64,000 nucleotides of DNA from Bacteroidales bacterium (GTDB taxonomy: Bacteria > Bacteroidota > Bacteroidia > Bacteroidales > Prolixibacteraceae): positions 13,311 through 77,310 of the forward strand of contig JBBQHB010000005.1 of assembly GCA_038323575.1 (NCBI GenBank), in the 5' to 3' direction. Within the stretch, counting starts at the first letter, position 1; the number at the start of each line of letters is the position of its first letter. Below, piece after piece: positions 4,143 to 38,811 of this stretch. The translations under genes and the position numbers were made by a program. Below the pieces are notes generated by a model. That model made no database searches, had not been told where the DNA came from, and worked only from the letters and a program-made list of their open reading frames with translations.

Positions 4143-4145
4143 CTA

Positions 4146-5042: not shown

Positions 5043-5609
5043 ATGAGTACATTATTCGTAATGTTCTGCCTTACCGGATTTTCAAAAGATTATCGTGTTG
5101 ACACAAAGGGAAGTACATTAGAGTGGGTGGCTAAAAAAGTTACCGGTCAGCACTCCGGAACGATCACATTCGGAGAGAGTGTACTGAAGGTTGAAAAACA
5201 AAAGATTACCGGCGGTAAATTAACTGTAGATATGAACACCATTGTTAATACAGATTTGACAGATGCCGGTTACAATCAAAAATTGATCGGCCATCTGAGA
5301 TCGGATGACTTTTTTGGCGTAGCAAAATTTCCCGTTTCAACTTTAGCGTTAAAAAAAGTTGAATTCAAGTCAGGTACGGTTTATCATTTTGCTGCTGATC
5401 TGACCATTAAGGGTATCACTTCTCCGGTAGAATTTGATGCCGAGGTCACAGAAGCGGCAGGGCAGTTAACTGCGACAGGTATGATGACGGTTAACCGGAC
5501 AAAATTTGGCATTAAATACGGGTCAGGAAGTTTCTTTGAAGGTTTAGGAGATAAAATGATCTACGATGATTTTACTTTAAATTTTAAGCTGGTTGCTACT
5601 AATAATTAA
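5043..5609 (+). CDS. YceI family periplasmic protein
   Basis: MSTLFVMFCLTGFS signal, then STLEWVAKKVTGQHSGTI...FTLNFKL, typical of YceI-like lipocalin domains. An upstream in-frame ATG at 4977 is possible but less likely. Confidence 0.8.
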   Translation: MSTLFVMFCLTGFSKDYRVDTKGSTLEWVAKKVTGQHSGTITFGESVLKVEKQKITGGKLTVDMNTIVNTDLTDAGYNQKLIGHLRSDDFFGVAKFPVSTLALKKVEFKSGTVYHFAADLTIKGITSPVEFDAEVTEAAGQLTATGMMTVNRTKFGIKYGSGSFFEGLGDKMIYDDFTLNFKLVATNN

Positions 5610-5650
5610 GCTTGGTTTTTTGGTTTTACAACAGGGGATGAATCTTTTGA

Positions 5651-8600: not shown

Positions 8601-9331
8601 GAACAGTTCAGTCCGATGGTGAGCAGATCGATGTGTGATACGGAATTGAGGAATGCCTCGATGGTTTGGCCCGAGAGGGTCCGGCCGCTTTTATCGGTGA
8701 TGGTCCCGGAAATCATCACGGGAAGCTTGATCCCTTTCTCCTCAAAGATTTCGCTGATAGCGACCAAAGCCACTTTGCAGTTCAGGGTATCGAAGATGGT
8801 TTCGACCATTAAAAGGTCGACTCCGCCTTCCAGTAAACCTTCCACCTGTTCACGGTAGGAGTGTTTTAATTCCTCAAACGAGATTGAACGGAAACCCGGG
8901 TCGTTCACATCGGGCGACATAGAACAGGTTTTGTTGGTCGGACCGATTGATCCGGCTACATATCTTGGTTTTTCGGGGGTTGAAAATTTTGCAGCGGCTT
9001 CGCAGGCAATCCTGGCAGCTTCCCTGTTTATTTCCCGGACAAAGTCTTGCGTTCCATAGTCGCTTTGCGAGATGGAGGTGGCATTGAACGTATTGGTTTC
9101 CAGTATATCTGCACCGGCTTCCAGAAAGGCCTCATGTATATTTTGAATGGCTTCCGGATGACTTATGCAGAGCAAATCATTGTTTCCTTTGAGTGAGGAG
9201 TTCCAGTTTTTGAATCGTTCTCCCCGGAATTCGGCTTCCGAAAATTTGTACTGCTGGATCATGGTTCCCATGGCACCATCCAATACGAGCACCCTTTTTT
9301 CTAATACTTTGCGGATATCCGGTTTTGTCAT
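5651..9331 (-). CDS. metH: Cobalamin-dependent methionine synthase
   Basis: 1226 aa with all modules: Hcy-binding, pterin-binding, B12 cap/binding with the DxHxxG motif ([11 protein letters not shown]), and a C-terminal AdoMet reactivation domain. Confidence 0.97.
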
Positions 9332-9334
9332 GAC

Positions 9335-10744: not shown

Positions 10745-10978
10745 TGATGTGATTTAATCTATTCCTCCGAACAGGAAGACGATCTGCTGAAAATCAATTT
10801 TTTTTGCCTGTAGGGAGAACAACCCGGCAAAGGTATAAATTTTAAACACAGATGGTTTAGCCTGAAAAAACAACGTATCAGGTGGCGGTTGGCGGGAATT
10901 GATTTTTTATTAATTTTCGATGCTTTTAATACATGCATTTTTTTTGAACAAAACCCGGATTACCAAACGAGAGGAAAT

Positions 10979-12157
10979 ATGGCAAACACAAATTTTAACC
11001 GCAGGAATTTTTTGTTTTTAGGCGCCACGGCAACTGTAGGCCTGACCGCCCAAGCCCTTCAGGCTTTGCCTGCAAAAAAGGACAAAGAGAAGAAGAAAAA
11101 GAAGATAATTTACAGGACACTTGGAAAGACCGGAATTGAGGTTCCTATTGTCAGCATGGGCGTGATGCGTGCAGATAATCCCAATATCCTCAAAGCTGCC
11201 TATGAAATAGGTATCCGGCATTTTGACACAGCCAGCGGGTACCAGGACGGCCGGAATGAAGAGATGGTCGGCCAGTACTTCAAAGATATTCCAAGGAATG
11301 AAGTAATAATTTCGACCAAGATACATCCTCCGAAGGAGGGTCTGTCAACAGAACAATTTCTTGCAAAATTTGATGAGAGCCTTAAAAGACTGCAGATGAG
11401 TTATGTTGATATCCTGTACCTGCACGTATGCAATGACAGGGCCTATACCCTGGATCCAAGGTACACCGAAGCACTGAGAAGAGCCAAGGAGAGCGGGAAA
11501 ACCAGATTTATCGGCTGCTCCACCCATACCAACATGCCTGAAGTAATCAATGCCGCCGTCGACAGCAAATTGTATGATATTGTCCTCACTGCCTATAATT
11601 TCCGTTTGAAAGACGATGCTGAATTGCAAAAAGCGTTGCAAAGGGCCAATGATGCCGGATTGGGGATCGTCGGAATGAAAAATATGGCAGGAGGCTTTTT
11701 GGATAAGGAGAAGAAAAATCCAGTCAATTGCAAGGCTGCACTAAAATGGGCCCTGTCTAATCCATTGGTTCATACCTGTATTCCTGGATTGACAAACTTT
11801 GAAATGGTAAAAGAGAACTGGGAAGTTGCCCAAAACCATGATCTTGATGAAAAAGAAAAAGGTGATTTGCAGTTGGCCTTGAACGAAACAGGTCTTTATT
11901 GCCATGGATGCCTTACTTGTTCGGGTCAGTGCCCCCAAAATCTTCCGATTCCGGACCTGATGCGTTCTTATATGTACAATTACGGATATTCCTATCCTGC
12001 CAAGGCACAATCGACAGTGGCACAGTTAAACCTTTCTGCCAATCCATGCGAAAATTGTCCGGGTTGTTCAGTAAACTGTCCCAACGGTTTTGACGTAAGG
12101 GAACGGATTACCGATATTGCACGTATCAAACTGGTACCTGCAAATTTTTTAGTATGA
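10979..12157 (+). CDS. TAT-exported aldo/keto reductase with C-terminal 2x[4Fe-4S] ferredoxin-like domain
   Basis: ATG at 10979 gives a twin-arginine signal (NFNRRNFLFLGA). The AKR core includes IRHFDTASGYQDGRNEE. Two CxxCxxCxxxCP motifs are present (CHGCLTCSGQCP, CENCPGCSVNCP). Confidence 0.8.
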   Translation: MANTNFNRRNFLFLGATATVGLTAQALQALPAKKDKEKKKKKIIYRTLGKTGIEVPIVSMGVMRADNPNILKAAYEIGIRHFDTASGYQDGRNEEMVGQYFKDIPRNEVIISTKIHPPKEGLSTEQFLAKFDESLKRLQMSYVDILYLHVCNDRAYTLDPRYTEALRRAKESGKTRFIGCSTHTNMPEVINAAVDSKLYDIVLTAYNFRLKDDAELQKALQRANDAGLGIVGMKNMAGGFLDKEKKNPVNCKAALKWALSNPLVHTCIPGLTNFEMVKENWEVAQNHDLDEKEKGDLQLALNETGLYCHGCLTCSGQCPQNLPIPDLMRSYMYNYGYSYPAKAQSTVAQLNLSANPCENCPGCSVNCPNGFDVRERITDIARIKLVPANFLV

Positions 12158-12993
12158 AACAAGCATTGTTTTTAATTCTTTTGTTTTTCTCGCTCCGGGC
12201 CCGGTCGCAAGAGGTTGTTTTTCCCAAGTTAACAGCCTGGAATACAGATGGGAAAGTGTTGAGTTTCAACAAGGAAAATTTGTATGAACACATTGACGGT
12301 GCCGCTGAATTTTACCTGAGCTACGGATTTGAGACTTTACAGGTTGCCAGTTGGAGCAACGACGGTGCGGAGCTGACCATCGAGGTATACGATCATGCCG
12401 ATCCGCTGTATGCCTACGGAATCTACAGCATTGAAAAGTCAGCCAAGGCAGTGATTGTGCCGGTTGGTCTGGAAGGGTATGGTGATGCTGCAACATTCAA
12501 TTTCGTATCCGGGAAGTTCTATGTGAAGATGAACGGCACGCAACTTGAAAAAGTGCCGGGATTTTCGCTGAAGGTGATTGCTGAAGAGTTCTCGCGGACG
12601 TTGTCTGCCAAACCAGAATACCCAAAGTTGGTCGGGATGTTTCCGAAAGAAAATCAGTTACCCAATACTTGCCAGTATATTCCGACCGAATTCATGGGTC
12701 TTGGGTTTTTGGGATCGGCTCTGCGTGCAAAATACAGTCTAGACGGAGAGGAGATAACACTCTTTATCATTGAGCGTGCAGACCGGGGTGCAATTGAGCA
12801 GATCATTACCAAATATGCATCCTATGCCGATGCAAAATTGAAAAAACCGGCAGAGGGTGATTTTTTGTTCAAGGATCCATTCAACGGCATGGTTTGCCTG
12901 AGGTGGAAAGCCAATTACCTGATTGGCGCAAGCGGATTCTCTGACAAGAAAAAGGTTACACCGTTGTTCGATAAGGTTTCGAAATTACTATGA
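12154..12993 (+). CDS. Secreted hypothetical protein
   Basis: Signal peptide MKQALFLILLFFSLRARSQ. It has 4-nt ATGA overlaps with both neighbours (12154-12157 and 12990-12993), implying an operon. No family recognised. Confidence 0.6.
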   Translation: MKQALFLILLFFSLRARSQEVVFPKLTAWNTDGKVLSFNKENLYEHIDGAAEFYLSYGFETLQVASWSNDGAELTIEVYDHADPLYAYGIYSIEKSAKAVIVPVGLEGYGDAATFNFVSGKFYVKMNGTQLEKVPGFSLKVIAEEFSRTLSAKPEYPKLVGMFPKENQLPNTCQYIPTEFMGLGFLGSALRAKYSLDGEEITLFIIERADRGAIEQIITKYASYADAKLKKPAEGDFLFKDPFNGMVCLRWKANYLIGASGFSDKKKVTPLFDKVSKLL

Positions 12994-13682
12994 AAGACAA
13001 CAAGTTACCTAATGGCTTTGGTTCGCTCAAAGCCATTTTTTTTGATATGGATGGTGTGATCTACGATTCTATGGGTCATCATTCAGTGGCATGGCACAAG
13101 GCTTTCGCCGACCTCGGTCTGGATTTCCCGCTTGAGCAGGTTTATATGAACGAGGGTCGGACAGGATCTTCTACCATTCAGATGTTTTATAACGAAAATT
13201 TAGGCAGGGAAGCAACAGAGGCGGAGATACTGCACATCTATGCAAAAAAGAGTGAATACTTTGAGCTGATGCCAAAACCGGTTCCAATTAAAGGAATTTC
13301 CAAGTTAATGGAACGGATTATTAAAGAGAATTTAGCTATTTGGGTGGTTACCGGATCTGCCCAGGAGCAGCTGCTGGATGGTTTATGCATTGATTTTTTT
13401 GGCTATATCCAAAGGGAAAAGATCGTCTCGGCGAACCATGTAAAATTTGGAAAACCGAATCCTGAGCCCTATCTGATGGCGCTCAAAAAATCGGGATTTA
13501 CTGCGGATGAAGTTGCGGTAATAGAAAATGCACCTTTGGGAGTCCAGTCTGCAAAGGCGGCAGGTATTTACACCATTGGCATCAATACCGGGATACTTGC
13601 GGATGAGATCTTGTGGAATTCCGGCGCTGATGTGGTGGTAAAAGAGGTGCATCAACTGGAGAAACTGATATTCCCCAACTGA
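12990..13682 (+). CDS. HAD-superfamily hydrolase (beta-phosphoglucomutase-like subfamily)
   Basis: HAD motif I FFDMDGVIYDS, motif II VVTGS and a KFGKPNPEPY lysine motif. Confidence 0.8.
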   Translation: MKDNKLPNGFGSLKAIFFDMDGVIYDSMGHHSVAWHKAFADLGLDFPLEQVYMNEGRTGSSTIQMFYNENLGREATEAEILHIYAKKSEYFELMPKPVPIKGISKLMERIIKENLAIWVVTGSAQEQLLDGLCIDFFGYIQREKIVSANHVKFGKPNPEPYLMALKKSGFTADEVAVIENAPLGVQSAKAAGIYTIGINTGILADEILWNSGADVVVKEVHQLEKLIFPN

Positions 13683-13706
13683 TGCACCTCTTAGTGGTTG
13701 TTCTTT

Positions 13707-15254
13707 CTATTTCAACTCTTCCAGCATCGCTTTTATATTACGATGTATCGTGGGAGCCGTTTCAGGTCCCAGTGAATTGACTTCTCCATAGGGACTACCG
13801 GCTTTACCGTAAGTGAAAGGAGCTTTTTCATCCCACTGGCTTTTGGGTATGATGTACCCGATTTCATCGTTGGCAAGACCGAACATGAATTTATATTTAC
13901 CTGGCATAAGATCCCTGATGGAGGGAACTTCGACGGGTGCTATGGCAAAATCCTGACCGGCAGGTGATTCAACTCCGCCGTTTAAGATTTCAGGATACAA
14001 CTCTCCGGGAATTGTCACAATGGTGATGGGCCCGATTTTGATCACTGAAAGTTCCGATTTCATGTTCATCCATCCGGTCATTCCCCTTTTCATGAGTCCG
14101 GTCATGGCAGCGATTTTGAACAGGGTATTTTTAAGTGGTATAGGCAGTGTTTTTGCAATTATTGAGATAGATGCCGAATCGATAATCTCTTCAGGTTTCT
14201 CCATGGCATTCAACGCCAGGCTGGCCACTGCTTTGCCTTCTGCTGCGGCTTTCTCAAATGTAGGCGCTTTGAATTCTTCCCCGGAGAATGGATCTTTTAC
14301 GGTAAGACTGGGATGAGTGGTCATCAGACCGCCGACGCACGCGCTGACATATACAGCAACGCCTCCGACACCGGCTTTCATCAGGCTGTCTTTGTTGTAA
14401 ACACCTTTTTCTATGCCTTCACGCACATAATGGGGAAAGTCGGAAGTCAGCAAGAGGTTGTCACTCCAGAGTGTTTCAGGATGATTGCCCCAGGATATCA
14501 GTGTTCCCAATGTATTGTTGGTTTCTTTGTCCAAAACCTGGATCATGCGCAGGCCTGAATCAAAGACTTCCGGCTTCCTGGTATCCTTAACAAGAGGAAT
14601 TGCTCCGGTCAGATCCTGTGAAACTGAAAAGCGTGCAGGCCGCAGGTTTTTTGCCGCAGTATCGATTGCCTTTGCAGCCTGGTTCTTGACATATTCCATG
14701 TGGGCAGCGTTGACGCCGGTATTTAGCGGATTTTTCCCCCAAAGGCCAAGGAGATCTGGCCCTTCGTGGGTATGGGTGGAGGTAACAATGGCGTAGGTGA
14801 TCCCTGATTCTTTGGAGATCTTGCCCCGCAGATCGATCACATCGTTGTTCATAAAGCCTATGGCATCAAGTACTACGATTGCCAGACGGGTTTTGCCGTC
14901 ATCTATTACCATGGCTCTTGCCCATACATCATCGTGAATTCCGTTGGCAGGTTTGTTGTTTCCAAAACCAGCAATCCATACCGGATCGAATTTGCCGTTT
15001 CCATTGCCATCTGTGAATGTCTCCCCCTTGTCGAATTTGGCATTTTTATTTTTATCGTCCCAGCGGTCCGGAACCGACGGAGTAATTGGCAAAGCGCAGA
15101 ACCCGGCTGAAAGCTGCGAGGAAGGATTGTTCAGGATTTTCAGGTCCACTTTGTAATCCGGTTGCTTGTCCCTGAGGTTATTACCGAACCAAAAGGATAA
15201 AGCAATAATCAGCAGCAATACGATCAAGCCTAAATACTTGAAAAATTTCTTCAT
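13707..15254 (-). CDS. Neutral/alkaline ceramidase-like exported hydrolase
   Basis: N-terminal membrane anchor or signal. The region GIHDDVWARAMVIDDG...VTSTHTHEGPD resembles the N-terminal domain of neutral ceramidases. Assignment is by recollection of the family motif only. Confidence 0.55.
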   Translation of the reverse strand: MKKFFKYLGLIVLLLIIALSFWFGNNLRDKQPDYKVDLKILNNPSSQLSAGFCALPITPSVPDRWDDKNKNAKFDKGETFTDGNGNGKFDPVWIAGFGNNKPANGIHDDVWARAMVIDDGKTRLAIVVLDAIGFMNNDVIDLRGKISKESGITYAIVTSTHTHEGPDLLGLWGKNPLNTGVNAAHMEYVKNQAAKAIDTAAKNLRPARFSVSQDLTGAIPLVKDTRKPEVFDSGLRMIQVLDKETNNTLGTLISWGNHPETLWSDNLLLTSDFPHYVREGIEKGVYNKDSLMKAGVGGVAVYVSACVGGLMTTHPSLTVKDPFSGEEFKAPTFEKAAAEGKAVASLALNAMEKPEEIIDSASISIIAKTLPIPLKNTLFKIAAMTGLMKRGMTGWMNMKSELSVIKIGPITIVTIPGELYPEILNGGVESPAGQDFAIAPVEVPSIRDLMPGKYKFMFGLANDEIGYIIPKSQWDEKAPFTYGKAGSPYGEVNSLGPETAPTIHRNIKAMLEELK

Positions 15255-28174: not shown

Positions 28175-28855
28175 TCAAATTGCCATTCTAACCCCATTCC
28201 GTTTTAACCATTGCTCATGCTTTTGATAATTGGGACACAGAGCCGAAACCTGATCCCAAAATGCCCGGGAGTGGTTCGGATGCTCCAGGTGAACCAGTTC
28301 ATGAATGATGAGATAATCGAGGACTACTATGGGCGCCATTACACATCTCCAGTTGAAATAAATATTACCTGCCGGGGTACACGATGCCCAACGTGTAGGC
28401 AGCTCCCGTATCTCAACTTTACCCGGCTTCCTTTGAACTGAATCCAGAAATAACAACAATCGTTCTTCAATTCTAAGTTTGGATTGTTTCTTGTAAAAGT
28501 ATACAAATGCTTCTTTGGGATATTTAGAGGAGATACTCAGCAGAAATTTTCCATCCTTAAAAAGCAGATTCCGTTTTTGTCCTTCTACCAGATGCAAATT
28601 GTAGTTTTTTCCCAAATACATAAAGGACTGCCCCGAGACAAACTTTCTTTCGATCTGCTCCTTGTTCAACTCTTTCCAGTAAACCAGCTTTTTATGAATC
28701 TCATATTCCTTCTTTTTCAATATGCCAAGAATACGCTCTTCTTCCATACCGTCCGGAACCTGAACGCTCACCGTCCCGTCCCGTTCGATCACGATGTGCA
28801 TCGTTTTCTTTCGGGTAGTACGGGTCACCACGATGTCTAATCCATTAAGATGCAT
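28175..28855 (-). CDS. DUF45 / M48-family (YgjP-like) zinc metallopeptidase
   Basis: HExxH motif in IIHELVHLEHPNHS. Overlaps the hsdR stop by 11 nt. This family is a frequent last gene of type I R-M operons. Confidence 0.85.
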   Translation of the reverse strand: MHLNGLDIVVTRTTRKKTMHIVIERDGTVSVQVPDGMEEERILGILKKKEYEIHKKLVYWKELNKEQIERKFVSGQSFMYLGKNYNLHLVEGQKRNLLFKDGKFLLSISSKYPKEAFVYFYKKQSKLRIEERLLLFLDSVQRKPGKVEIRELPTRWASCTPAGNIYFNWRCVMAPIVVLDYLIIHELVHLEHPNHSRAFWDQVSALCPNYQKHEQWLKRNGVRMAI

Positions 28856-31800
28856 GAAGAATACTTTTCAGAATTTCGGAATAATTGTTTTTGGCCAGCA
28901 TCATGATTTGCAGGGCAATTTCCTTGTTTTTCGCTTTCAGGCTTTGAATTCCGGTCATTCTTATACGTTGTTCTATCTTCCCGGTGACTCTCCGTTTTTC
29001 ATCGTTTTTCTCCCAGAAATTGCCGATTTGAATGCCTTCTGTGATGTATTTAAAGACAAATCCGGTCAGCTCAATCAAATTTTTTTCTGATTGTTCGGTC
29101 TGTTCTTCCTCCATCCCATCAACCAGCAAATCTAAAAAAGGTGCCTGCAAGGCGGGAACCTTTGAAACTGTGCGTCCCTTGCCTATCTCACCCCTTAGCT
29201 CTTCCATCTCCCTGATCATGAGATCCCAATTCCCCTGGTAGCCGGAGATGATGGTATCTAACCTGTCTTTGAAATGGCGGTACAAAGAGGGATCGTGGTT
29301 TTCCAGGTTTACCTTTATCTGTTGCCTTATCGCATGTTCCATGGCCGAGGCCTTTGATTTGGAGCCTCTGTACATGTTTTCCATTTTTTTCGGAAAATCA
29401 TCTGATATGATCGATACTTCCGACACCCTTTGCGCTATACCTAAATGGATCAAGTATTTATCAATCAGATTTCTGACTTTGGCGCTCGCCCATTTCAAAT
29501 CAAGCGTGTCATCTTTGTAATGATAGCGGATGCGCCACATCAAATAACCGATGCGTTTGGCCGGAACCCAATGTTCACGCTGTACTGAAGGGACGTTGAA
29601 GAGCAAATCCAACCGGTCGAAGTAGTTTTTGATCAAGGTATCGAATTCGGCCCTTAGCTTCAGATTTCCGGCCATATCAATTACCGCTTCCACGATTTGG
29701 AACTCTGCACGGCCGTCCGGGATTACCTGATGCAGGAGTGCATCCATTTGAGCTATGTTTTGTTCTTCGAAAAACTGTACAATTTTCCGGTAACGCAATT
29801 CCAATTCGGGTATTTCCTTGTTGATGTCTTTGAAGTATTCGCCAAATTCGGCTAATTCGCTCTTGCACTCTTCAGCATCTTTATCTGTATAAATACCCAA
29901 CGCCCGATTCAGGTTTTTAGTGATGCCAAAATAGTCGACCACCAAACCATGGGTCTTGCCCTTCTTGGTACGGTTTACCCTTGCTATGGCCTGGAGTAAA
30001 TCATGTTCCCTTAAATTTTTATCCATGTAAAGAACTTGTGCAATCGGCGCATCAAAGCCTGTCATCAGACGGTCGCAAATGCACAAAATGCCAATCCCAT
30101 TCTCTGATTTGGATGGATCATGGGTATTGAAATCCTTCTTGAATGAATCGGTAATATTTTTACCGGCACCTTCTTTCCTGGCTTCGGTGATGTAACCTGG
30201 TTCGTTGTTCGACTGCGACGATATGACCGCCCGCACTTTCAATATCTTCAATCGCTTGATCAAATCCTCATTTCTGGCTTCTCCTTCTTTGGCTTCTTCC
30301 ACTGCCAGAAATTCAGGTATCAGCCTTTCCAATTCTATTTTATAACGGATTGCTGCCACGATGGATGATACTGCAACCATGGCTTTAAATCCGTTGGAAA
30401 GTACTTCTGAAACATAGTGCGTCATGATATCCAGGGCAATGGGCTGCACCCGATTCTTGCTTTCCAGATATTCTATCATGCCACCGTAGCGCCGCTGAAT
30501 CTCCTGGCGTTCCTCTTCGGTACGATGTTTGAATATCTCTTCGTATTCAAGATCAAAAACCTCTTTGTCAGATATTTCGTCCGAGGTGCTTTTACCGATG
30601 TATTTGAGGTCAACCGTTGCCCTGTCGGCAACAGAATCATTCATTTTATAAGTGTCTATGTACTCGCCGGGCAACTGACAGAATCGTTCTGCGGTTGTAA
30701 TTTTGTGACGGGGTGTAATCAGGGGCGTTCCGGTGAATCCGATCCGGGTTGCCTCCGGGAAAGCCATGAACAGGTTATTGCTCATATCGCCATTTTGCGA
30801 ACGGTGGGCTTCGTCAATCAGTATCAGCACTTTCTCGCTTTTGTTGATCTCCCCGAAACTTTCATATTTCGGAACAATACCCAAACGGAACAACGCTTCT
30901 GCAGATGCCTCCTGGTTGATCCCGAATTTGTGCAGCATCACGATGTTCAGGTCGGCTGTATCGTCGCTGAGTTCTGCCAAAACCTTTTCCTCTTTGCCTG
31001 CGGGTGCCCTGCCTGTCTTTTTTGAAACGGTCCAGACCTTCTCTCCGGCCAGATGGGCCGTCTCTTCCAACTGATCTTCCAGATCGATGCGGTCGACCAC
31101 CATCAATATTTTGTAATTCTTCAGATCAAAAGTGGTCCGCATTTTTTTGATCAGGAAGACCATGGTCAGGCTTTTCCCGCTTCCCTGCGTATGCCAGATC
31201 ACGCCGCTTCGCTCTTGCCAGGATTGCCCTACAAGGAGCCTGTCAATCATTTTGCCGACAGCGCGGTATTGCTGGTAGCGGCAGATAATTTTCACCTCCA
31301 GTCCGGGTTTGGCTTCCGCGTACAAGGTGAAATTCCGCATGATGTCCAGCAATATCTCGTGGTTGAACATTCCCAAAATGATCACCTCCTGCCGCTTCCC
31401 GCCGGTTTGCGTCTCTACTGTTTTGTATTTTTCGGGGAAGATATCTGTCCAGTTGAAGAAGTAATCGAATTCGGCACGGATGGTCCCGAAGCGGGCTTCC
31501 GTCCCGTAAGTTATGACATTGAAGAGATTGGTGTAAAACAGCGATTCCTTCCCTTCCGTAACGGCATAAAAATCATCATCCCGTTGGTTGCTGTACCTTC
31601 GAATCTGGGTATAGGCATCACTCAATGGCTCTGCCACGTACATCTCCTTGCATTCTATTACCACCCAGGGCATTCCGTTGACAAAACAGACAATATCCGG
31701 TATGATGCAGGACTTGGCCGTGGTGGGGGTATCGACCCGAAACTGGTTCATGGCCACAAAACTATTGTTGCCGTAATGTTCGAAATCCACCAATTTCACC

Positions 31801-32132
31801 GTAGGATTTTCCTCTCCTGTCTGAATGTTTTTCCCGGGCAGAGGGATGCCTTTGCGCAACATTCTGTACACATCCTTGTTGGCCTCCAGCAATTTTTTGT
31901 TTCCCTGCAGCAGGATCCGGTCGAAACAATATTCCAGTTGCTCCGACGTGGCCCATGGATTTAACCTGCTTACTGATTCCAGGAATACACCCCTCAAAGC
32001 TACTTCGCTGAAAGTGGAGCGGTATGATTTGGAAGGATCCACCGGAATGCCTTGTCCCTGATCGATCACCTGCCAGTGTGCCTGTCGGAGTTTCTCCAGA
32101 AAAGGTTTTTCAACGTTGGTATATTCGGCCAT
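28845..32132 (-). CDS. hsdR: Type I restriction enzyme, R subunit
   Basis: 1095 aa. N-terminal PD-(D/E)XK nuclease motif (IPDIVCFVNGMPWVVIECK), SF2 helicase Walker A (TQGSGKS), DEAH box (LIDEAHRSQ) and a C-terminal helical domain. Confidence 0.95.
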   Translation of the reverse strand: MAEYTNVEKPFLEKLRQAHWQVIDQGQGIPVDPSKSYRSTFSEVALRGVFLESVSRLNPWATSEQLEYCFDRILLQGNKKLLEANKDVYRMLRKGIPLPGKNIQTGEENPTVKLVDFEHYGNNSFVAMNQFRVDTPTTAKSCIIPDIVCFVNGMPWVVIECKEMYVAEPLSDAYTQIRRYSNQRDDDFYAVTEGKESLFYTNLFNVITYGTEARFGTIRAEFDYFFNWTDIFPEKYKTVETQTGGKRQEVIILGMFNHEILLDIMRNFTLYAEAKPGLEVKIICRYQQYRAVGKMIDRLLVGQSWQERSGVIWHTQGSGKSLTMVFLIKKMRTTFDLKNYKILMVVDRIDLEDQLEETAHLAGEKVWTVSKKTGRAPAGKEEKVLAELSDDTADLNIVMLHKFGINQEASAEALFRLGIVPKYESFGEINKSEKVLILIDEAHRSQNGDMSNNLFMAFPEATRIGFTGTPLITPRHKITTAERFCQLPGEYIDTYKMNDSVADRATVDLKYIGKSTSDEISDKEVFDLEYEEIFKHRTEEERQEIQRRYGGMIEYLESKNRVQPIALDIMTHYVSEVLSNGFKAMVAVSSIVAAIRYKIELERLIPEFLAVEEAKEGEARNEDLIKRLKILKVRAVISSQSNNEPGYITEARKEGAGKNITDSFKKDFNTHDPSKSENGIGILCICDRLMTGFDAPIAQVLYMDKNLREHDLLQAIARVNRTKKGKTHGLVVDYFGITKNLNRALGIYTDKDAEECKSELAEFGEYFKDINKEIPELELRYRKIVQFFEEQNIAQMDALLHQVIPDGRAEFQIVEAVIDMAGNLKLRAEFDTLIKNYFDRLDLLFNVPSVQREHWVPAKRIGYLMWRIRYHYKDDTLDLKWASAKVRNLIDKYLIHLGIAQRVSEVSIISDDFPKKMENMYRGSKSKASAMEHAIRQQIKVNLENHDPSLYRHFKDRLDTIISGYQGNWDLMIREMEELRGEIGKGRTVSKVPALQAPFLDLLVDGMEEEQTEQSEKNLIELTGFVFKYITEGIQIGNFWEKNDEKRRVTGKIEQRIRMTGIQSLKAKNKEIALQIMMLAKNNYSEILKSILHAS

Positions 32133-32152: not shown

Positions 32153-32860
32153 TTATACAACAATGAATTTAGTATAGAGAACGCCAATAACAATGGCAAG
32201 ACCAAAACTTACCAAGGTGCCAATCAGTACATATTCAGTGAGTTTGCGTTCTTTTGATTCTTTAAGATCACCGAAGCGGAAGATTGATTTTGCCGCGAAG
32301 AGGAACCCGATTGCTTCCCAGTGACCTGATAAAACAAAAGCAAAGACAAAAAGACGTTCGAGTATTCCAATGGTCTTACCTGCTTCCTGTAATGAGCCGT
32401 CATCCTCATCGATTGTATGCGGCGTCCATTTTGAGATATAAAACTTTACCGCGATTGATATGGGTGTAGTGAGTGCGTATGCCGCAGTAATAAAAACCAG
32501 TAAATGATCTGGTTTAATATTTCGTAACGGGGATTCACCGGCTGAATAAACAAGCCAAATAGCTGTAAGCAGTAAAAGATGGATAGCCTGATCAACAAAA
32601 AAGTACCACCGTCCGTTTTCTTTTATAGAATACAGTTTAACAACATCAATAACCAGGTGCGCCAAAGCAATTATTGCCGCCCACTTCCAGAAGGTGAAAT
32701 CAAATACCAGCAGCATGATAAGCGCAAAATGGATAAATGAGTGTAGGTAAAGTTGCCATGAACCCAGTTTATTTTTCTCTTTGGCTTTTACCCAACTGTC
32801 GGGTTGCAGTAGAAAGTCGCCCATCAGATGTGCCAAAACAAGTTTTATCAAGAGTATCAT
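32153..32860 (-). CDS. DUF3307-like (SatE-like) polytopic membrane protein
   Basis: 235 aa with about 6-7 hydrophobic helices carrying conserved-looking His/Asp (AHLMGDFLLQ, HSFIH, AHLVID, QAIH). ATGA overlap with the SatD-like gene at 32857-32860. Family named from memory of the recurrent SatD/DUF3307 pairing. Confidence 0.65.
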   Translation of the reverse strand: MILLIKLVLAHLMGDFLLQPDSWVKAKEKNKLGSWQLYLHSFIHFALIMLLVFDFTFWKWAAIIALAHLVIDVVKLYSIKENGRWYFFVDQAIHLLLLTAIWLVYSAGESPLRNIKPDHLLVFITAAYALTTPISIAVKFYISKWTPHTIDEDDGSLQEAGKTIGILERLFVFAFVLSGHWEAIGFLFAAKSIFRFGDLKESKERKLTEYVLIGTLVSFGLAIVIGVLYTKFIVV

Positions 32861-33471
32861 AACAATTGCATTATTTTTTTTTGATACAAATCATTCAGTT
32901 CTTTCAATTCATCATAATGTGCCCTCGCAAGGCGATTACTTACCGCATTTTGTCTGAGATTGCCCAGCATCTGCCCAAGTTCTTCCTGAGATAATTGGGG
33001 ATTGAATAATTTGAGATGGATTACTTCAGCAGATTTTAACGACCAGTTGTCCATGAAAATCATTCCGAGCCTAAGGCAAAGGTTCATTGTTGCATCAAAT
33101 TCCAACCATGGGGTTTTTATTGCCAGGGTAAGTTTTTCTTTTTTAAGAAGAGAGAATTTTTCACCCGAATTGATAAATGCCGGGCCATTGCTTTCGGTTA
33201 TCCTTTCGCCCTGGTAGGTAATGTCGCCAATGCCGATGGCCAGTCTCACATCGAGGGGTTTTACCATCTTGATGGCAGCTTTTAGCTTTATTGCAGCCAG
33301 AAGCGCTTTGAGCGGATCGTCGACCCGGAACTGGAATGTATCACCTTTATAGGTTTCCCAGGATACGGGGCTGTTACCATATAATTTCAGTTCTTCTTTC
33401 AGGAGTCCCAGCCAACTTTCGGGGGGTCTCCTGCGCGAATTAATTATATCGCCGGTTATTACACTTATCAT
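32857..33471 (-). CDS. SatD-family protein (cyclase-like N-terminal half plus C-terminal HTH)
   Basis: 204 aa. Motif series VITGDIINSR / KGDTFQF / RLAIGIGDI / GPAFINSGE, and a C-terminal SQEELGQMLGNLRQNAVSNRLARA helix-turn-helix-like segment. Family call is from memory and needs HMM confirmation. Confidence 0.65.
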   Translation of the reverse strand: MISVITGDIINSRRRPPESWLGLLKEELKLYGNSPVSWETYKGDTFQFRVDDPLKALLAAIKLKAAIKMVKPLDVRLAIGIGDITYQGERITESNGPAFINSGEKFSLLKKEKLTLAIKTPWLEFDATMNLCLRLGMIFMDNWSLKSAEVIHLKLFNPQLSQEELGQMLGNLRQNAVSNRLARAHYDELKELNDLYQKKIMQLL

Positions 33472-33490
33472 CTCATTCGATTTATTATCT

Positions 33491-33560
33491 CAAAGATATC
33501 ATTTAATAACGTGATAAACTGAAATATCACCTAAATACGTGATAAATTAAATTATCACGT
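33491..33560 (-). promoter_or_regulatory. Putative internal promoter and operator region upstream of the SatD-like gene
   Basis: On the minus strand, TATCTTTG (33498-33491) matches the Bacteroidota -7 consensus TAnnTTTG, 19 nt before the ATG. The motif ACGTGATAA occurs at 33509-33517 and 33537-33545, and inverted (TTATCACGT) at 33552-33560. Together these give the palindrome ACGTGATAA-N6-TTATCACGT. Confidence 0.4.
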
Positions 33561-34718
33561 TATTGTGCCTGGTGCCAGTTCATTCGTCAGCAGAACCATT
33601 TCTAAGGATTTCTCCCCTCCCAACAAATCCCCCATCAACCCCCGCTTAATCGATTGGTATTTTTGGAGAAGGGTTTCTTCGGCATTCATTTTATTATCAA
33701 GGGCTAATAGCCGATTCCCGATTTCTTTCTGTTCGTTGTGGTGTGGTTTTGTAATGAATAAACGCAATATTTTAGCAACAGCCAATCCTGGTTGAGCTGA
33801 TGCCTCAGAATATTGGTTAAGGTTCATGTAATCAAGTTTTTGAGAAAGCCAGTCAACATTAATATCTTTATTTACAGTTACAACTACAGCATGTTCTGAT
33901 GCAAAGAAATTACCCGAAACTCGGGTGATATTTCCACACAAAGCACCTTGCCTGCCAATAAGCACAAAATCACCTTCATGGGTATAAGTTGTAGTAAATC
34001 CTCTCAATCCATTTCCTCCAAAAACAGGGAATTCTCCGCTATCTGCAATAAATTTAGATGTGATACCCTCTCCACTTTTCATGGTTGAAATCTCTCCTAG
34101 TCTCTTCACCTCCCACTCCTTCGGTATCATCCCCAACTCCGAGGTTTTGTAAAGTTCCGGCGCTTCCTCGTGGCGGGGACGCAGGCGGCCGTTGGCATCC
34201 AGTCCGCGGGTAAACAAATCGTGCAGGAGCCCTTGTTTGATGGCTTTGTATTTGGCGATGGCGGATTGAGTTTGGGAGATAACGGAGTCGCAAGTGGTGA
34301 GGATATGGGCGATTTTTTGCTGCGAAGATTTCTCTGTTGGAATCTTTAACCTAATTTTCTCGATAATTCCACCAGTTATGACAGGCTGTGCACTCTGAAA
34401 AGCATAATCTCTTAAATTTAGATTAGAAAGTACATAATACCAAAATTTAGAATCTTGATTACTATTGAGAAAGGATACAACTAAAGCATTATCAGTAATC
34501 CAACTCTTAACTTGTGTAATATGCACATTACCACAGAGAGCACCAACTCTACCAATAATTAATCTGCTTTCATCAAATAAAAAATGATTATGAAATCCAG
34601 TAATTCCATTCCCTCCATAAACTGGGAATTGTCCAGGTTTCATTTTTGAGTCAGGCAATCCTTCTCCGCTTGAAACTTTAATGAATTCATTCAACCTCAC
34701 TTCCCTCCACTCACTCAT
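33555..34718 (-). CDS. hsdS: Type I restriction-modification specificity subunit
   Basis: Start at ATG 34718 (MSEWREVRLNEF). Two target-recognition halves, each beginning with GxxPVYGGNG/FPVFGGNG and each followed by a conserved helical spacer (IKQGLLHDLFTRG; IKRGLMGDLLGG). Confidence 0.9.
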   Translation of the reverse strand: MSEWREVRLNEFIKVSSGEGLPDSKMKPGQFPVYGGNGITGFHNHFLFDESRLIIGRVGALCGNVHITQVKSWITDNALVVSFLNSNQDSKFWYYVLSNLNLRDYAFQSAQPVITGGIIEKIRLKIPTEKSSQQKIAHILTTCDSVISQTQSAIAKYKAIKQGLLHDLFTRGLDANGRLRPRHEEAPELYKTSELGMIPKEWEVKRLGEISTMKSGEGITSKFIADSGEFPVFGGNGLRGFTTTYTHEGDFVLIGRQGALCGNITRVSGNFFASEHAVVVTVNKDINVDWLSQKLDYMNLNQYSEASAQPGLAVAKILRLFITKPHHNEQKEIGNRLLALDNKMNAEETLLQKYQSIKRGLMGDLLGGEKSLEMVLLTNELAPGTIT

Positions 34719-35247
34719 CCCCCAACTCCTTCCTTTTCTTTTTCGTTGCGGCAATTTGGCGAATCGACTTGGCATTGAGTGGAGTAACCACTTTTTGTCC
34801 GGTACTTGCTTCTAATTGCTGACGCGCCACGCGGGCCACATCGCCCCCTTTGCGGGCAGCAACGGCGCTTTCACCGAAAGTTTGCGGATCGGTAGCCACA
34901 GAAATATCTTTGGTGGAGGCTTCTGCCAGCCAAAGTTTAAATGGCTCGGCTTTGGGAGATGGAATGGATTGGATGAGTCGGAAAAGTTGCTCACTATCAG
35001 CCACATCCGTTAAATATACTTTCCCGTCGGAAGAGGGCATTTTCAGTTGACTACAATTTGTAGTCAACTGACTGCCTTCTTTCTTCAAGCGATTTTTGAG
35101 TACACTCCAATATTTCCGCGGGTTCGGACTGTCAGTCAGTACCGCCACCACATCCACAACAGAGAAATACCATTTCTCCTGCCCGTCGTCCCATACCGTG
35201 CGGACTTTTTTATCCCCGAATATTTTTAGCGCATTTTGCTTTGTCAT
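34711..35247 (-). CDS. Bro-N domain protein (antirepressor-like DNA-binding protein)
   Basis: 178 aa. FGDKKVRTVWDDGQEKWYFSVVDVVAVLTDS...KAEPFKLWLA is a typical BRO N-terminal domain. Its stop overlaps the hsdS start by 8 nt (ATGAGTGA). Confidence 0.7.
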   Translation of the reverse strand: MTKQNALKIFGDKKVRTVWDDGQEKWYFSVVDVVAVLTDSPNPRKYWSVLKNRLKKEGSQLTTNCSQLKMPSSDGKVYLTDVADSEQLFRLIQSIPSPKAEPFKLWLAEASTKDISVATDPQTFGESAVAARKGGDVARVARQQLEASTGQKVVTPLNAKSIRQIAATKKKRKELGDE

Positions 35248-35342: not shown

Positions 35343-36200
35343 TTATTCAGTTGCATCATTGTTTAAACCCTTAAGTTTTTTACCGGCAATATTTCTGTCG
35401 GCTGTTTTCACTCTTCGTTCCAGTTTTTTAAGGTCTTCTTCGGGTGGTAAAACTTCTGGTTTTATCCCGCTTTTACCCAAAAGCAAACGAATGTCGGTAT
35501 TGTTTTTTACATGCTCGTTGGTGATTCGATTCTCACCTTTCAAATCGTTTTTCTTGACGTTGAAATTGGTAATTTCAGTTGCCAACTGCTTGGCGGTAAT
35601 GGTTATGGTGGGTAAAAAGTCGGCCAATGGCCGGTTCTCCGGAACACCCAACTTTCGTTTCATGGCGCTGGTGTTGTGACCTCCAAACAATGCCCAGTCG
35701 CCTTTGCTTCGGATATTTGCAAAACCTTTGTTATCAACACCCCTTTCATAAATATTTTTAGAGAGTTCGGTTTCGGTGGCTGCCAGTTTTTCCCTTGCCT
35801 GCAATCGTTCGTTTAACTGAATTCTTTCCTCAAGCAATTCCTGCTTCCGGGTTTGTATGGCAAAGTAACTTTGGGCAAAAGCAATCTGTTCTTTGCGTGG
35901 ATCTCCGTTTTGGGCAATAAGGTAACAGGCATAGCGGGTAAGCATGACGTCGTCAATTTGCTTACTTGCACCTTTGGGCATATCGATCGTTTTGTTGACG
36001 TCAACGAAATGATCGGAAACCGCTTCACCAGTGGTTTTGCAGCTTTCTTTGGCTTTATCAACAATATTCAAAAAGTTACGCCAATCGGCATATCCTAATA
36101 GGGTTTGCAATTCGCGGGCAAGCCAATATTCGATACCGTCTTGTTCGTATGCAAATTCTTCGAAACTGCGGTTTAACCTGGTAATTATTTCTTTATCCAT
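35343..36200 (-). CDS. dinD: DNA-damage-inducible protein D (DinD) homologue
   Basis: 285 aa, collinear with E. coli DinD as I recall it (YWLARELQTLLGY..., LTRYACYLIAQNGDP, QSYFAIQTRKQEL). Starts 13 nt after the hsdM stop. Confidence 0.8.
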   Translation of the reverse strand: MDKEIITRLNRSFEEFAYEQDGIEYWLARELQTLLGYADWRNFLNIVDKAKESCKTTGEAVSDHFVDVNKTIDMPKGASKQIDDVMLTRYACYLIAQNGDPRKEQIAFAQSYFAIQTRKQELLEERIQLNERLQAREKLAATETELSKNIYERGVDNKGFANIRSKGDWALFGGHNTSAMKRKLGVPENRPLADFLPTITITAKQLATEITNFNVKKNDLKGENRITNEHVKNNTDIRLLLGKSGIKPEVLPPEEDLKKLERRVKTADRNIAGKKLKGLNNDATE

Positions 36201-36213
36201 GGTCGATTATTTA

Positions 36214-38811
36214 TTATTCATAACCCAATTCCTCCATAAAACGGTTCAACTCCTGGGTGAAGGAATCCCGTTCAGTCAGGATATCGGTCAGCGTAACGGT
36301 GTATTTGTCGTGGAGTTCTTCCACGGATTGCTGTAATCCGCGGGTATGGGCATCGAGGTAACTATTGATGGTAGAATGCAGGATGGTTAACCAACGATTG
36401 ACGATCAGAGGCTTGGCTTCTTCGGCAGTTATCTGCTCGCGGGACTGTTCCACCGTTTCATTCTTGTATTGTTCGATCAGGCGGATGGTCGAAGCACATG
36501 CCTTGAGTTCATTTTCCAAATCAACATGGCGCTGAATGCCGGCTTCGGCAGTTTTGATCTCCTGCGTCAACGAAAGCAGGGTTGCCTGAAGCTGCGCCAA
36601 CGCTTGTTTCAAGGCAGGTATCCCGGCGCTTTCGAAGACATTTTGGTAAGCCTGAATCCTTTTTTGCAGGCTTTTTGCCTCTTTCTCCTGCTCTTTGAGT
36701 TGCCCGTTCAGTTGCTTGATGGTTGCTTTTATCTCCGAAATCTGGTTTTTGGGAATGACCTGATAATCGGTATCGTTCCATTCTCCATCTTCCAGTTCAG
36801 CTACTTCGGCAAATTGCGCTTCCAACTCCTCCTTGCGGGATTGGCTGGCCCTCAGTTCGGCCAATAATTTTGGGAACTGGCTTTCCAGGATGGCCTCTTC
36901 CGGGATCAGTTCGGCATTCCAGCCACTGGCGGCTACCGATTTGAAATCCGTTTCCAACTCGTTCAGGTATTGTGCGAATGCCCCGCGACTTTGGAATTCG
37001 TCTAACAGCGGATGTTCCAGTCCGGCGGTTTTGCCGGCAAAACTTTGCGACAGGGCCTGGGTAAAATGGTACACTTCTTTGTCTTCGGGTAATTTGTCCA
37101 GCAAGGGTAAGCAATTTTGCCAGAACTCCTCCATCTTGTCTTTGTACAACTGCATGGCTTTTGCATATCCCGCCGAACCGAGTATCACCTCTTTGATCAC
37201 TTCTTTAGAGCCAATTGCTTCACTAAATTGATGGTATCCCTTTTTGCCGTGAACGAAAAGCAACTCTTTCAATCCATCGTAGCAGGCAAAAGCGCTATCC
37301 AGGTTACTGATTTCAGCATCCGGCAGACCACCTTTGAGATGGGCGTGCACATCGTGCGGCGTTGGTTCCGGGGCATTGTCCACATACCTGCGAATGTTGC
37401 AGTTAAATTCTTCGGCTTCCAGCTCTGCCTTGTTTACCAGCCGGCTGTATTTCTGCAGTGTTTTTTTGTGGGTGTAGCAATAGGATATTTTCTCGATGTC
37501 CTCGGGGCGCAGGCTGTTCTGGTTTTTCCCCTCTTTGTATTCGCGGTCGGCATTGATGAAGAATACGCCTTTTCGGTTGACTGCATCGGCTTTGTTGACA
37601 ATCAGGATAGAGGCAGGTATGCCGGTGCCGAAAAACAGTCCGGGCGGCAGTCCGATGATGCACTCCAGGATACCCTGTTCGATCAGCCGTTTCCGCATCC
37701 TTTGCTCCTCGCCTCCGCGGAACAGCACACCGTGTGGCATCACCACCGCCATGCGGCCGTTCTCTTTCAGCGTGGCGATCATGTGCTGCACAAACATAAA
37801 ATCTGCCTGTTTCTTGGCGCTCATCCAGTTCTGGAAACGCTCCTTGAATTTCATGCCGGCAGTGGTATAGTTCTGCGAGAAAGGGGGATTGGCTACCACG
37901 ATATCGTATTTCCGGAGCATACCGTTTTCGACCAGTTTAGGGTCAAGCAGTGTATCGCCCTGCTGGATATTGGCGTTGCGGATGCCATGGAAAATCATGT
38001 TCATCTTGCACATCTTGTAGATGCCGTCTTTCAGCTCCTGTCCATGGATGGTGAGGTTTCGGGCGGTGCCGTAACGGGCTTCCACATAATTGCGCATGTT
38101 AATTACCAATCCGCCGGAGCCGATGGTCGGGTCGCAGATTTCGGCATCGATGGAGGGTTGCAGGATTTTCCCCATCAGTTGTACCACCGGGGATGGGGTA
38201 TAAAATTCGCCGCCTTTCTTTCCGGCGCTTTCGGCAAAGTATTTGATCAGGAACTCGTAGGCGGCGCCCAGCAGGTCGGGAAATTCGAAGTGGTCGTCGG
38301 TTAACTTCCATGAATTGAAGTCTTTCAGCATTTGCGAAAGCACCTCGTCGGAGAGGAGTTTTTCTCCTTTGGAGTTGACTGAATTGAACTTTGTGGTACT
38401 CAATACGCCCTGTAAAATATCGGCATTGGCATCTTCGAGGGCATTCAAAGCTATACTCAAGGCATCCCCGACATTTTCAACGACAGTTGCGATACCAGGC
38501 CACTGTGAAGGAACCGATTCGTCTGCTTTCCACCGCGCTGCCTTTGGGACAAAAAATTCATATTCTTCGGCGTTGTTTTCTTCCAGTTCTGCGGCAAGCT
38601 CCGCTGCGCTCATTTCCGGAAATTCAGACAGCAGATGCTTCTCCCTTTCGGTACGGGCTATTTCGAACTGGTCGTTTACCCGCTTGAGGAAAAGCATCGC
38701 GATGATATAATCTTTGTATTCAGCAGCATCCAAACCGGCTGCCCGAAGATTATCGCATTGCAATTTGAGGAAGGTATTTAACTTGGAAAGGGAGATTTTC
38801 TTGTTGGGCAT
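36214..38811 (-). CDS. hsdM: Type I restriction-modification methyltransferase subunit with long C-terminal coiled-coil extension
   Basis: 865 aa. N-terminal HsdM_N-like helix bundle, AdoMet motif I (DPTIGSGG) and catalytic motif IV (VVANPPFSQ). The last ~350 aa are Glu/Lys/Gln/Leu-rich helical sequence. Confidence 0.95.
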   Translation of the reverse strand: MPNKKISLSKLNTFLKLQCDNLRAAGLDAAEYKDYIIAMLFLKRVNDQFEIARTEREKHLLSEFPEMSAAELAAELEENNAEEYEFFVPKAARWKADESVPSQWPGIATVVENVGDALSIALNALEDANADILQGVLSTTKFNSVNSKGEKLLSDEVLSQMLKDFNSWKLTDDHFEFPDLLGAAYEFLIKYFAESAGKKGGEFYTPSPVVQLMGKILQPSIDAEICDPTIGSGGLVINMRNYVEARYGTARNLTIHGQELKDGIYKMCKMNMIFHGIRNANIQQGDTLLDPKLVENGMLRKYDIVVANPPFSQNYTTAGMKFKERFQNWMSAKKQADFMFVQHMIATLKENGRMAVVMPHGVLFRGGEEQRMRKRLIEQGILECIIGLPPGLFFGTGIPASILIVNKADAVNRKGVFFINADREYKEGKNQNSLRPEDIEKISYCYTHKKTLQKYSRLVNKAELEAEEFNCNIRRYVDNAPEPTPHDVHAHLKGGLPDAEISNLDSAFACYDGLKELLFVHGKKGYHQFSEAIGSKEVIKEVILGSAGYAKAMQLYKDKMEEFWQNCLPLLDKLPEDKEVYHFTQALSQSFAGKTAGLEHPLLDEFQSRGAFAQYLNELETDFKSVAASGWNAELIPEEAILESQFPKLLAELRASQSRKEELEAQFAEVAELEDGEWNDTDYQVIPKNQISEIKATIKQLNGQLKEQEKEAKSLQKRIQAYQNVFESAGIPALKQALAQLQATLLSLTQEIKTAEAGIQRHVDLENELKACASTIRLIEQYKNETVEQSREQITAEEAKPLIVNRWLTILHSTINSYLDAHTRGLQQSVEELHDKYTVTLTDILTERDSFTQELNRFMEELGYE

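Follow-up and report, generated by a model that had tools for sequence, protein, structure and literature searches.

A SatD-like/DUF3307 gene pair nested in a type I restriction–modification operon of a Bacteroidales bacterium: a candidate autorepressed cassette from a widespread Bacteroidota family

The window considered here, a stretch of 64,000 nucleotides from a Bacteroidales bacterium of the Prolixibacteraceae (assembly GCA_038323575.1, contig JBBQHB010000005.1, positions 13,311 to 77,310 of the forward strand), carries on its minus strand a 10.6-kb operon of a type I restriction–modification (R-M) system, for which hsdM, hsdS, and hsdR were all found in the same orientation. Nested between hsdS and hsdR are two genes that encode a SatD-like protein and a DUF3307 membrane protein, and it is this pair, together with its control region, that may represent an autorepressed sensor–effector cassette. 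In full, the operon runs hsdM, DinD-like gene, Bro-N gene, hsdS, SatD-like gene, DUF3307 gene, hsdR, and YgjP-like gene, and the cassette lies where the modification half (hsdM to hsdS) and the restriction half (hsdR-ygjP) of the operon meet. As had been proposed in a preliminary description of the window made from its sequence, the two genes are coupled and lie inside the R-M operon: both open reading frames are present on the minus strand, and the plus-strand letters TCAT at 32857-32860 (ATGA on the coding strand) are shared by the SatD-like stop and the DUF3307 start. Both can be regarded as real genes rather than chance reading frames, because their homologues number hundreds to thousands (1193 homologue clusters for the SatD-like and 6894 for the DUF3307 protein at E ≤ 1e-3, with 1362 representatives of the former at 50 % clustering). 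The DUF3307 stop is separated from the hsdR start by a gap of 20 nt. The pair and the three R-M genes are located as follows.

32857..33471, minus strand: SatD-like gene, 204 aa (Pfam SatD PF16264, 24.3 bits)
32153..32860, minus strand: DUF3307 membrane protein gene, 235 aa (Pfam PF11750, 90.5 bits)
33555..34775, minus strand: hsdS, specificity subunit with two target-recognition domains (Pfam Methylase_S, 129 bits; PADLOC Specificity_I)
28845..32132, minus strand: hsdR, restriction subunit, 1095 aa (Pfam HSDR_N, SWI2_SNF2, T1R_D3-like; PADLOC REase_I)
36214..38811, minus strand: hsdM, 865 aa (Pfam N6_Mtase, HsdM_N; PADLOC MTase_I)

The SatD-like protein matches PF16264 with an E value of 2.8e-5 over residues 7-182 (176 of 204 residues aligned), its score lying below the curated cut-off of 29 bits. 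The family is matched by 40 of its 43 homologues at 50-82 % identity (best E 7.4e-11), many of which carry precomputed PF16264 annotations, and the window protein is best described as belonging to a divergent SatD-like clade of the Bacteroidota. An AlphaFold2 model built from 43 homologues (pLDDT 95.9, pTM 0.91) predicts a palm domain over approximately residues 1-120 with a beta-alpha-beta-beta-alpha-beta core (strands 2-10, 38-41, 45-50, and 74-82), followed by a C-terminal domain of five helices (123-203). When this model was compared to the PDB with Foldseek, the best matches were nearly all class III cyclases, GGDEF proteins, GTP cyclohydrolase III, or Cas10 (probability ~1.0, best E 8.5e-4, TM 0.37-0.53 over 110-140 columns), for example, the GGDEF domain of DosC (4zvh), the adenylyl cyclase Ma1120 (4wp9), Rv1264 (1y11), and PleD (2wb4). 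The palm fold that the preliminary description had assigned to the first gene, proposing Pfam, AlphaFold, and Foldseek as checks, is hence recovered by a high-scoring model and its structural matches, and the motifs it had quoted are all present, with D8, G43-D44, R76/G80/G82, and G96 invariant or nearly so. The C-terminal helix-turn-helix (HTH) it had seen corresponds to the five-helix domain, which gives weak matches to Sigma70_r4, HTH_24, AsnC, MarR, and HipB-type HTH profiles.

Among 98 representatives at 34-67 % identity, the palm residues G7, D8, S12, G43, D44, F46, Q47, R76, G80, G82, G96, S102, and G103 are conserved to at least 90 %, as are W143, Q162, Q174, S178, and R183 of the C-terminal domain. 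D8 lies on the predicted strand beta1 and G43-D44 on the beta2-beta3 hairpin, that is, at the positions of the metal-binding Asp residues of cyclases; in the best hhalign register against CyaB (3r5g) and Cya2 (2w01), which served for alignment register only as the match is not significant (E 0.085), D8 and G43-D44 pair with the metal-binding D and GD of these cyclases, and R76 is paired as well. The transition-state Asn and Arg of the cyclases are absent: the segment G96-P-A-F-I100-N-S-G-E104 has I100 and E104 instead, the equivalent positions being I/V and E/D across the SatD family, and N101 varies (N/H/Y/F). No GGDEF motif is found in the protein, and when the 43 members were compared to Pfam with E values of up to 10 allowed, none of Guanylate_cyc, GGDEF, and mCpol was among the matches listed (the best 25 of 42 families), while a PDB sequence search returned no cyclase and only sub-threshold HTH matches. 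Summed up, the SatD-like protein shares with class III cyclases and GGDEF proteins the palm, the beta1 Asp, the Gly-Asp hairpin, and the RxxIGxG strand, but differs from them in giving no HMMER match, in lacking the catalytic Asn/Arg, and in the fused HTH of what is apparently a transcription factor; by sequence, its membership in the cyclase families is not supported.

The partner protein is recognized by PF11750 with an E value of 1.1e-25 over residues 3-106 (cut-off 23 bits), as are 44 of 44 homologues, and contains approximately seven hydrophobic helices; its AlphaFold2 model has nine helices at a pLDDT of 74, with values of 80-96 in the N-terminal half. Twelve residues are invariant in the 44 homologues (H11, G14, D15, Q19, H40, H44, H68, D72, K75, D90, Q91, and H94) and are placed one helical turn apart on four hydrophobic helices that form an N-terminal four-helix bundle. 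The polytopic membrane protein with intramembrane His/Asp clusters that had been described beforehand is thus well founded, the clusters H11/D15, H40/H44, H68/D72, and D90/Q91/H94 all being invariant. The C-terminal half is likewise strongly conserved and carries no annotation (for example, ERLFVF and FRFGDLK...LTEYxLIGT). Apart from the DUF3307 domain itself, nothing significant was found in Pfam, in a PDB sequence search, or with Foldseek against the PDB (E above 2), and no cNMP-binding, SAVED, STING, or CARF-like domain could be recognized in the Pfam, PDB sequence, and fold searches. Judging from its residues, DUF3307 may provide an intramembrane metal site, either of a hydrolase or of an ion pathway. 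With Foldseek against BFVD, only short phage DUF3307 proteins were matched, namely the stand-alone entries A0A1L7N193, A0A7G7WXF7, and A0A8S5PQC1 (119-131 aa) from the phages Ralstonia RP12, Rhizobium P9VFCI, and a podovirus; these consist of the N-terminal four-helix His/Asp bundle only and have no SatD partner in the phage collections searched.

The control region of ~75 nt that precedes the SatD start is built of five alternating half-sites at an exact spacing of 14 nt, with the hsdS stop codon falling inside the first of them. The half-sites and the adjoining promoter box are listed below as they read on the minus strand.

33558-33553, minus strand: first half-site, GTGATA
33544-33539, minus strand: second half-site, TATCAC
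33530-33525, minus strand: third half-site, GTGATA
33516-33511, minus strand: fourth half-site, TATCAC
33502-33497, minus strand: fifth half-site, aTGATA
33491..33498, minus strand: Bacteroidota-type -7 box TATCTTTG (promoter P2), 19 nt before the SatD start and overlapping the fifth half-site

Within 33511-33558, the palindrome GTGATA-N8-TATCAC occurs twice and TATCAC-N8-GTGATA once, and neither is found anywhere else in the 64 kb, for which 0.01-0.02 such palindromes would be expected by chance. The control region aligns mostly gap-free in 16 relatives at 58-81 % identity, with half-sites and -7 box kept despite unrelated flanks, and in more distant lineages the half-sites alternate likewise but differ in sequence (TATCGG, TATTAC, TATTCC, TATTGC, or TATCGT). 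The promoter of its own and the repeated operator-like motifs that the preliminary description had noticed ahead of the pair can accordingly be specified as a TAnnTTTG box and an array that is unique in the window and conserved beyond it. Furthermore, residue 179 of the HTH (in helix 174-183) has the highest normalized mutual information with half-site class among all 204 positions (0.89): the residue is N, T, or S at GTGATA loci, R at GTAATA loci, E at CCGATA loci, G at ACGATA loci, and K at a single GGAATA locus, three half-site classes being found within the Flavobacteriaceae alone. Because of this footprint-like conservation and the co-variation of residue 179, an autoregulator is the most economical reading, and SatD is most likely an autorepressor of its own promoter. 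Neither the operator array nor its co-variation with the HTH was found in the literature searched.

The -7 element of promoters in Bacteroidota, as defined in Bacteroides, has the consensus TAnnTTTG. Just upstream of genes in the 10.6-kb operon there are only two such boxes, one being P2 before the SatD-like gene and the other lying before hsdM:

38857-38850, minus strand: candidate promoter box TAACTTTG (P1), 39 nt before hsdM

These two boxes suggest two transcription units, mirroring the classical Pmod/Pres split of type I systems. In the 20-nt gap between DUF3307 and hsdR there is no convincing terminator and no TAnnTTTG box, and both a separate hsdR promoter and a terminator after DUF3307 were considered and rejected. 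Because the operon has only these two boxes and nothing convincing ahead of hsdR, P2 is the best candidate for the promoter of the restriction side, and hsdR-ygjP are probably co-transcribed with the SatD/DUF3307 pair from it.

Taking fold, residues, and control region together, we regard it as reasonably probable that the pair is a ligand-gated autorepressor, that is, a cyclase-fold sensor joined to an HTH, which controls a membrane effector and, at this locus, hsdR as well. Bound to the array as a dimer or a larger oligomer, SatD would repress P2, while its palm pocket (D8, D44, G96, S102, and G103) would bind a ligand of the Mg-nucleotide type that tunes DNA binding, with no second messenger being made. 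Release of SatD would then allow production of DUF3307 with its putative metal site of a hydrolase or ion pathway, and unregulated expression of this protein would probably be harmful. P2 being the only recognizable promoter ahead of hsdR-ygjP, the restriction subunit would come under the joint control of SatD, and SatD bound at the hsdS stop codon could in addition impede or block read-through from hsdM-hsdS.

A different reading, put forward in the preliminary description, follows the logic of Pycsar and CBASS and takes SatD for an active cyclase whose second messenger is sensed by DUF3307. The palm fold with both metal-position Asp residues conserved would suit it, as would the two-gene arrangement of a cyclase-like and a transmembrane protein within a defense operon. 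Against this, the positions of the transition-state Asn and Arg are taken by I100 and E104 and vary in the family, the Pfam matches listed, which extend to an E of 10, include no Guanylate_cyc, GGDEF, or mCpol, no PADLOC cyclase model is matched, and PADLOC-DB v2.0.0 and NCBIfam hold no match for either protein. In addition, the HTH, which makes up half of the protein, co-varies with the operators of its own gene, SatD appears to act on its own promoter, DUF3307 has none of the nucleotide-sensor domains looked for (cNMP-binding, SAVED, STING, CARF-like), and the family is mostly found outside defense islands. An active cyclase is thus very improbable, and cyclase-signaling defense by SatD/DUF3307 is not supported.

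The position of the pair after hsdS recurs. With the window left out, hsdS lies directly upstream of the pair in 7 of 124 related loci (distinct loci with at least 1.5 kb of upstream sequence), while a random gene is roughly estimated to have hsdS as its upstream neighbor in well under 0.1 % of cases; placement after hsdS at about 100 times this rough estimate is a real enrichment, albeit one made of few independent events (at least two or three). The R-M-embedded loci, designated here by L numbers, fall into two families: one with a long HsdM, comprising the window, L010, and L013 (hsdM and hsdR 49-53 % identical), and one with a short HsdM, comprising L052, L136, L140, L146, L151, and L155 (hsdM and hsdR 26-35 % identical); L001 holds an hsdS fragment. 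The SatD proteins of the embedded loci are 48-69 % identical to that of the window. The order is always hsdS, pair, hsdR, with a KilA-N gene preceding hsdR in one case, and in L052 and L151 the frame of DUF3307 runs 8-14 nt into that of hsdR. KilA-N genes were observed in two of the related R-M operons, namely between DUF3307 and hsdR in L010 (6653-7468) and between hsdM and hsdS in L052 (7830-8642). In L001, an integrase fragment of 86 aa and an hsdS fragment of 117 aa (7804-9867) lie just upstream of a 67 %-identical pair, which is followed by a KilA-N gene (11389-11940) beside a HigB toxin gene; a decayed or shuffling R-M locus may have left these remains.

A further reading is that the R-M-embedded copies are dedicated restriction controllers, in which SatD, as a ligand sensor resembling the C proteins of R-M systems, sets hsdR expression via P2 and a roadblock between hsdS and hsdR, with DUF3307 of secondary importance. 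Ahead of hsdR, P2 is the one box that resembles a promoter, the operator array starts in the hsdS stop codon, and in either R-M family hsdR is probably part of the pair's transcription unit, the frames being overlapped in L052 and L151. C proteins, too, are HTH regulators whose gene precedes the restriction gene on a shared transcript and whose operators overlap their own promoter. They are, however, small stand-alone HTH proteins of ~80 aa that mainly activate and occur in type II systems, whereas SatD has 204 aa with a palm, probably represses, and has operators and a partner that also exist outside R-M. Identical control regions and pairs at such other sites argue that the regulation did not evolve for hsdR; moreover, a repressor made from the same transcript would give no obvious delay of restriction upon entry into a new host, and DUF3307 is always retained. 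A controller dedicated to restriction is therefore regarded as decidedly unlikely.

How the family is distributed was followed by a scan of one genome per species, in which at least 595 species genomes were found to encode a relative; the 80 retained loci among them are almost all from Bacteroidota. In a metagenome scan, a query with the single protein gave no match and a query with the clade alignment gave matches. The gene after SatD encodes DUF3307 at 87 of 87 loci and at 83 of 88 others, fewer than 70 bases of contig remaining past the SatD match in four of the five exceptions; where the contig is long enough, the two genes are not seen apart. In 23 Flavobacterium species an HMG-CoA-lyase-like gene precedes the pair, and in 22 of them dihydroorotate dehydrogenase also follows; across these 22 species, the pairwise identities of SatD and DUF3307 track those of the PyrD and HMGL neighbors (r 0.84-0.96) at about twice their divergence, which indicates vertical inheritance at a fixed locus. 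Among 111 immediate neighbors at 59 loci, 4HBT thioesterase (8), UxaC (5), and RmuC (4) were the families met most often, with DHO_dh, HMGL-like, and FAD_oxidored also common and Methylase_S present three times. Sequence identities of 45-60 % are kept across many Bacteroidota lineages. Neither 50,697 phage records nor IMG/VR contained a SatD relative, and on plasmids the pair was met once, intact, on a Segatella copri plasmid.

At the family level, the pair is not a defense-island gene. The preliminary description had named as an outcome speaking against its own proposal that the pair might be a housekeeping module only incidentally adjacent to the R-M genes; for the family as a whole this largely holds, the neighbors being mainly housekeeping genes and inheritance in Flavobacterium vertical, while incidental adjacency sits less easily with the recurrent R-M embedding. 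We infer that the family began as a cellular module on the chromosome of Bacteroidota, handed down vertically, and that the R-M copies are secondary captures. The surroundings of relatives at 66-81 % identity are often variable or defense-like. An 880-aa HD-CE plus HATPase_c_3 protein (6975-9617) is encoded upstream of an 81 %-identical pair in L008, and a 66 %-identical pair in L011 is flanked by a 1599-aa DEAD plus UvrD fusion helicase (4727-9526) and a PIF1/HRDC/HTH_40 helicase (11501-14014). In L091, a ThiF/Prok-E2_E/Multi_ubiq set (3427-7637) lies beside a 66 %-identical pair together with SocA_Panacea-HTH and NOV_C proteins and looks like a ubiquitin-like conjugation defense island. Other close relatives adjoin RF3 or unremarkable genes.

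The remaining genes of the window operon flank this arrangement as follows.

35343-36200, minus strand: DinD-like gene (NCBIfam DinD NF008573, 357 bits; PADLOC PDC-S13)
34711-35247, minus strand: Bro-N gene, 178 aa (Pfam Bro-N; PADLOC PDC-S13)
28175..28855, minus strand: YgjP-like metallopeptidase gene (Pfam YgjP-like, 184 bits)

The DinD-like and Bro-N genes, which lie embedded between hsdM and hsdS, match the PADLOC phage-defense candidate PDC-S13 with 381 and 240 bits. The last 11 nt of hsdR are shared with the YgjP-like gene, and the related operon L010 also has hsdR followed by a YgjP-like gene (10685-11368, 48 % identity). Two further candidates were rejected: a compositional island, as GC lies at 0.40-0.50 throughout, and a mobile element with terminal repeats, as the homology of the relatives extends from a few bases before the first half-site to the DUF3307 stop with no common ends.

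Another possibility is that the pair is an R-M-embedded abortive-infection, programmed-cell-death, or toxin–antitoxin (TA)-like module of the kind of PrrC, Ronin, or TgvAB. SatD would silence a toxic DUF3307 until control is lost upon phage attack, for example, through a shut-off of host expression, an attack on the R-M enzyme, or a shift in a nucleotide pool, whereupon DUF3307 would damage the membrane and back up restriction. The pair indeed sits where PrrC lies in EcoprrI, with its gene order hsdM-hsdS-X-hsdR and PrrC at X. Like type II TA systems, it is bicistronic with overlapping frames, has a DNA-binding first gene, and carries operators at the promoter, binding and autoregulation being predicted here. 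In its favor, hsdS is upstream in 7 of 124 loci that involve two R-M families and at least two SatD lineages, and relatives at 66-81 % identity adjoin the hsdS fragment with KilA-N and HigB, HD-CE/HATPase and giant helicases, or ThiF/E2/ubiquitin-like genes with SocA/Panacea; the DinD-like and Bro-N genes of the same operon match PDC-S13. Guilt by embedding has, moreover, a good track record: genes nested in type I R-M operons are often defense systems, as for TgvAB (PMC11411939) as well as Ronin and PrrC (bioRxiv 10.1101/2023.04.06.535777), and a search of this kind gave 145 candidates, PDC-S13 being one of them (Payne et al. 2024, bioRxiv 10.1101/2024.01.29.577857).

PrrC, the Ronin protein RonA, TgvAB, and the PDC candidates resemble the pair in being small cassettes nested in type I R-M systems and recurrent after hsdS. 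Unlike PrrC and RonA, which occur almost only with hsdMS, SatD/DUF3307 is non-embedded at ~94 % of its loci and core-like in some genera, has no nuclease or known effector domain, and carries its own repressor and promoter. Neither protein has a PADLOC match or matches a PDC candidate, and their names are absent from the accessible part of the supplements of Payne et al. The immediate neighbors outside R-M are mostly housekeeping genes, inheritance is stable at one locus across Flavobacterium, conservation at 45-60 % across Bacteroidota lineages is unusually high for a defense effector, and the phage collections searched contain no copy of the pair and plasmids hardly any. Overall, an abortive-infection or TA-like module is a serious alternative, if a rather doubtful one. 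That being said, bona fide systems may be embedded once among hundreds to more than 1000 copies (Payne et al., 10.1101/2024.01.29.577857), and because known systems are embedded so rarely, a mostly non-embedded distribution is compatible with defense.

The closest named counterparts are SatD and SatE of Streptococcus mutans, which belong to the same two Pfam families (E 2.8e-5 and 1.1e-25 for the window proteins) and are likewise adjacent and co-oriented. The sat locus differs in lying next to ffh, whereas the window pair is located in an R-M operon, belongs to a Bacteroidota clade, and scores below the PF16264 cut-off. In S. mutans, satCDE is induced 2-3-fold by fructose (PMC12077213). In S. 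pyogenes, satD is the only gene that was essential in every strain tested and is yet absent in 29 % of genomes (PMC11323703), that is, essential and accessory at the same time, which can be counted in favor of a TA-like module and would also be compatible with a repressor of a harmful partner, as judged by analogy with a distant relative. No link of SatD or DUF3307 to R-M or defense was found in the literature searched, and the statement of the preliminary description that the pair has no assigned function agrees with the literature found, in which none is established.

Several points weigh against the reading of SatD as a ligand-gated autorepressor that has been captured by R-M operons. The correlation of residue 179 with the operators is confounded by phylogeny, and catalysis is possible because the palm keeps both metal-position Asp residues. 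DUF3307 is without a structural or functional homologue, and calling it a metal-dependent membrane effector would be to argue from the residue pattern alone. The ~100-fold placement after hsdS in two R-M families argues for more than passive capture, and Zorya II is embedded still more rarely (Payne et al., 10.1101/2024.01.29.577857). An R-M-embedded accessory or defense role is hence possible. In its strongest form, the embedded copies would be a second-line immune module in which a single signal-responsive promoter, kept in check by the sensor-repressor, governs both a membrane-damaging effector and the restriction subunit, so that a phage that disturbs the nucleotide pool or the R-M enzyme would unleash restriction together with cell suicide; in that case, the copies outside R-M operons, which are widespread, would serve the Bacteroidota as a 'core' module of immunity or stress response. 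We consider this extended scenario unlikely.

In any case, SatD and DUF3307 are uncharacterized families named after a streptococcal locus, and relatives of the pair occur in at least 595 species genomes dominated by Bacteroidota. The ligand-gated autorepressor would provide a first testable mechanistic outline for them, in which a cyclase-fold ligand domain is coupled to an HTH, the HTH recognizes an operator array that differs between lineages, and the gene so controlled encodes a membrane protein with an intramembrane His/Asp site. The pair would represent an accessory cassette of a kind known in type I R-M operons, drawn here from a widespread cellular family that lacks characterization, and two unrelated type I R-M families have their restriction gene behind it. 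If this link is functional, restriction may here be tied to a cellular signal in a new manner, or the pair may be a new defense of the embedded type; if it is incidental, it would call for caution in guilt-by-embedding screens, as a module of cellular origin and vertical inheritance can also enter R-M operons more than once.

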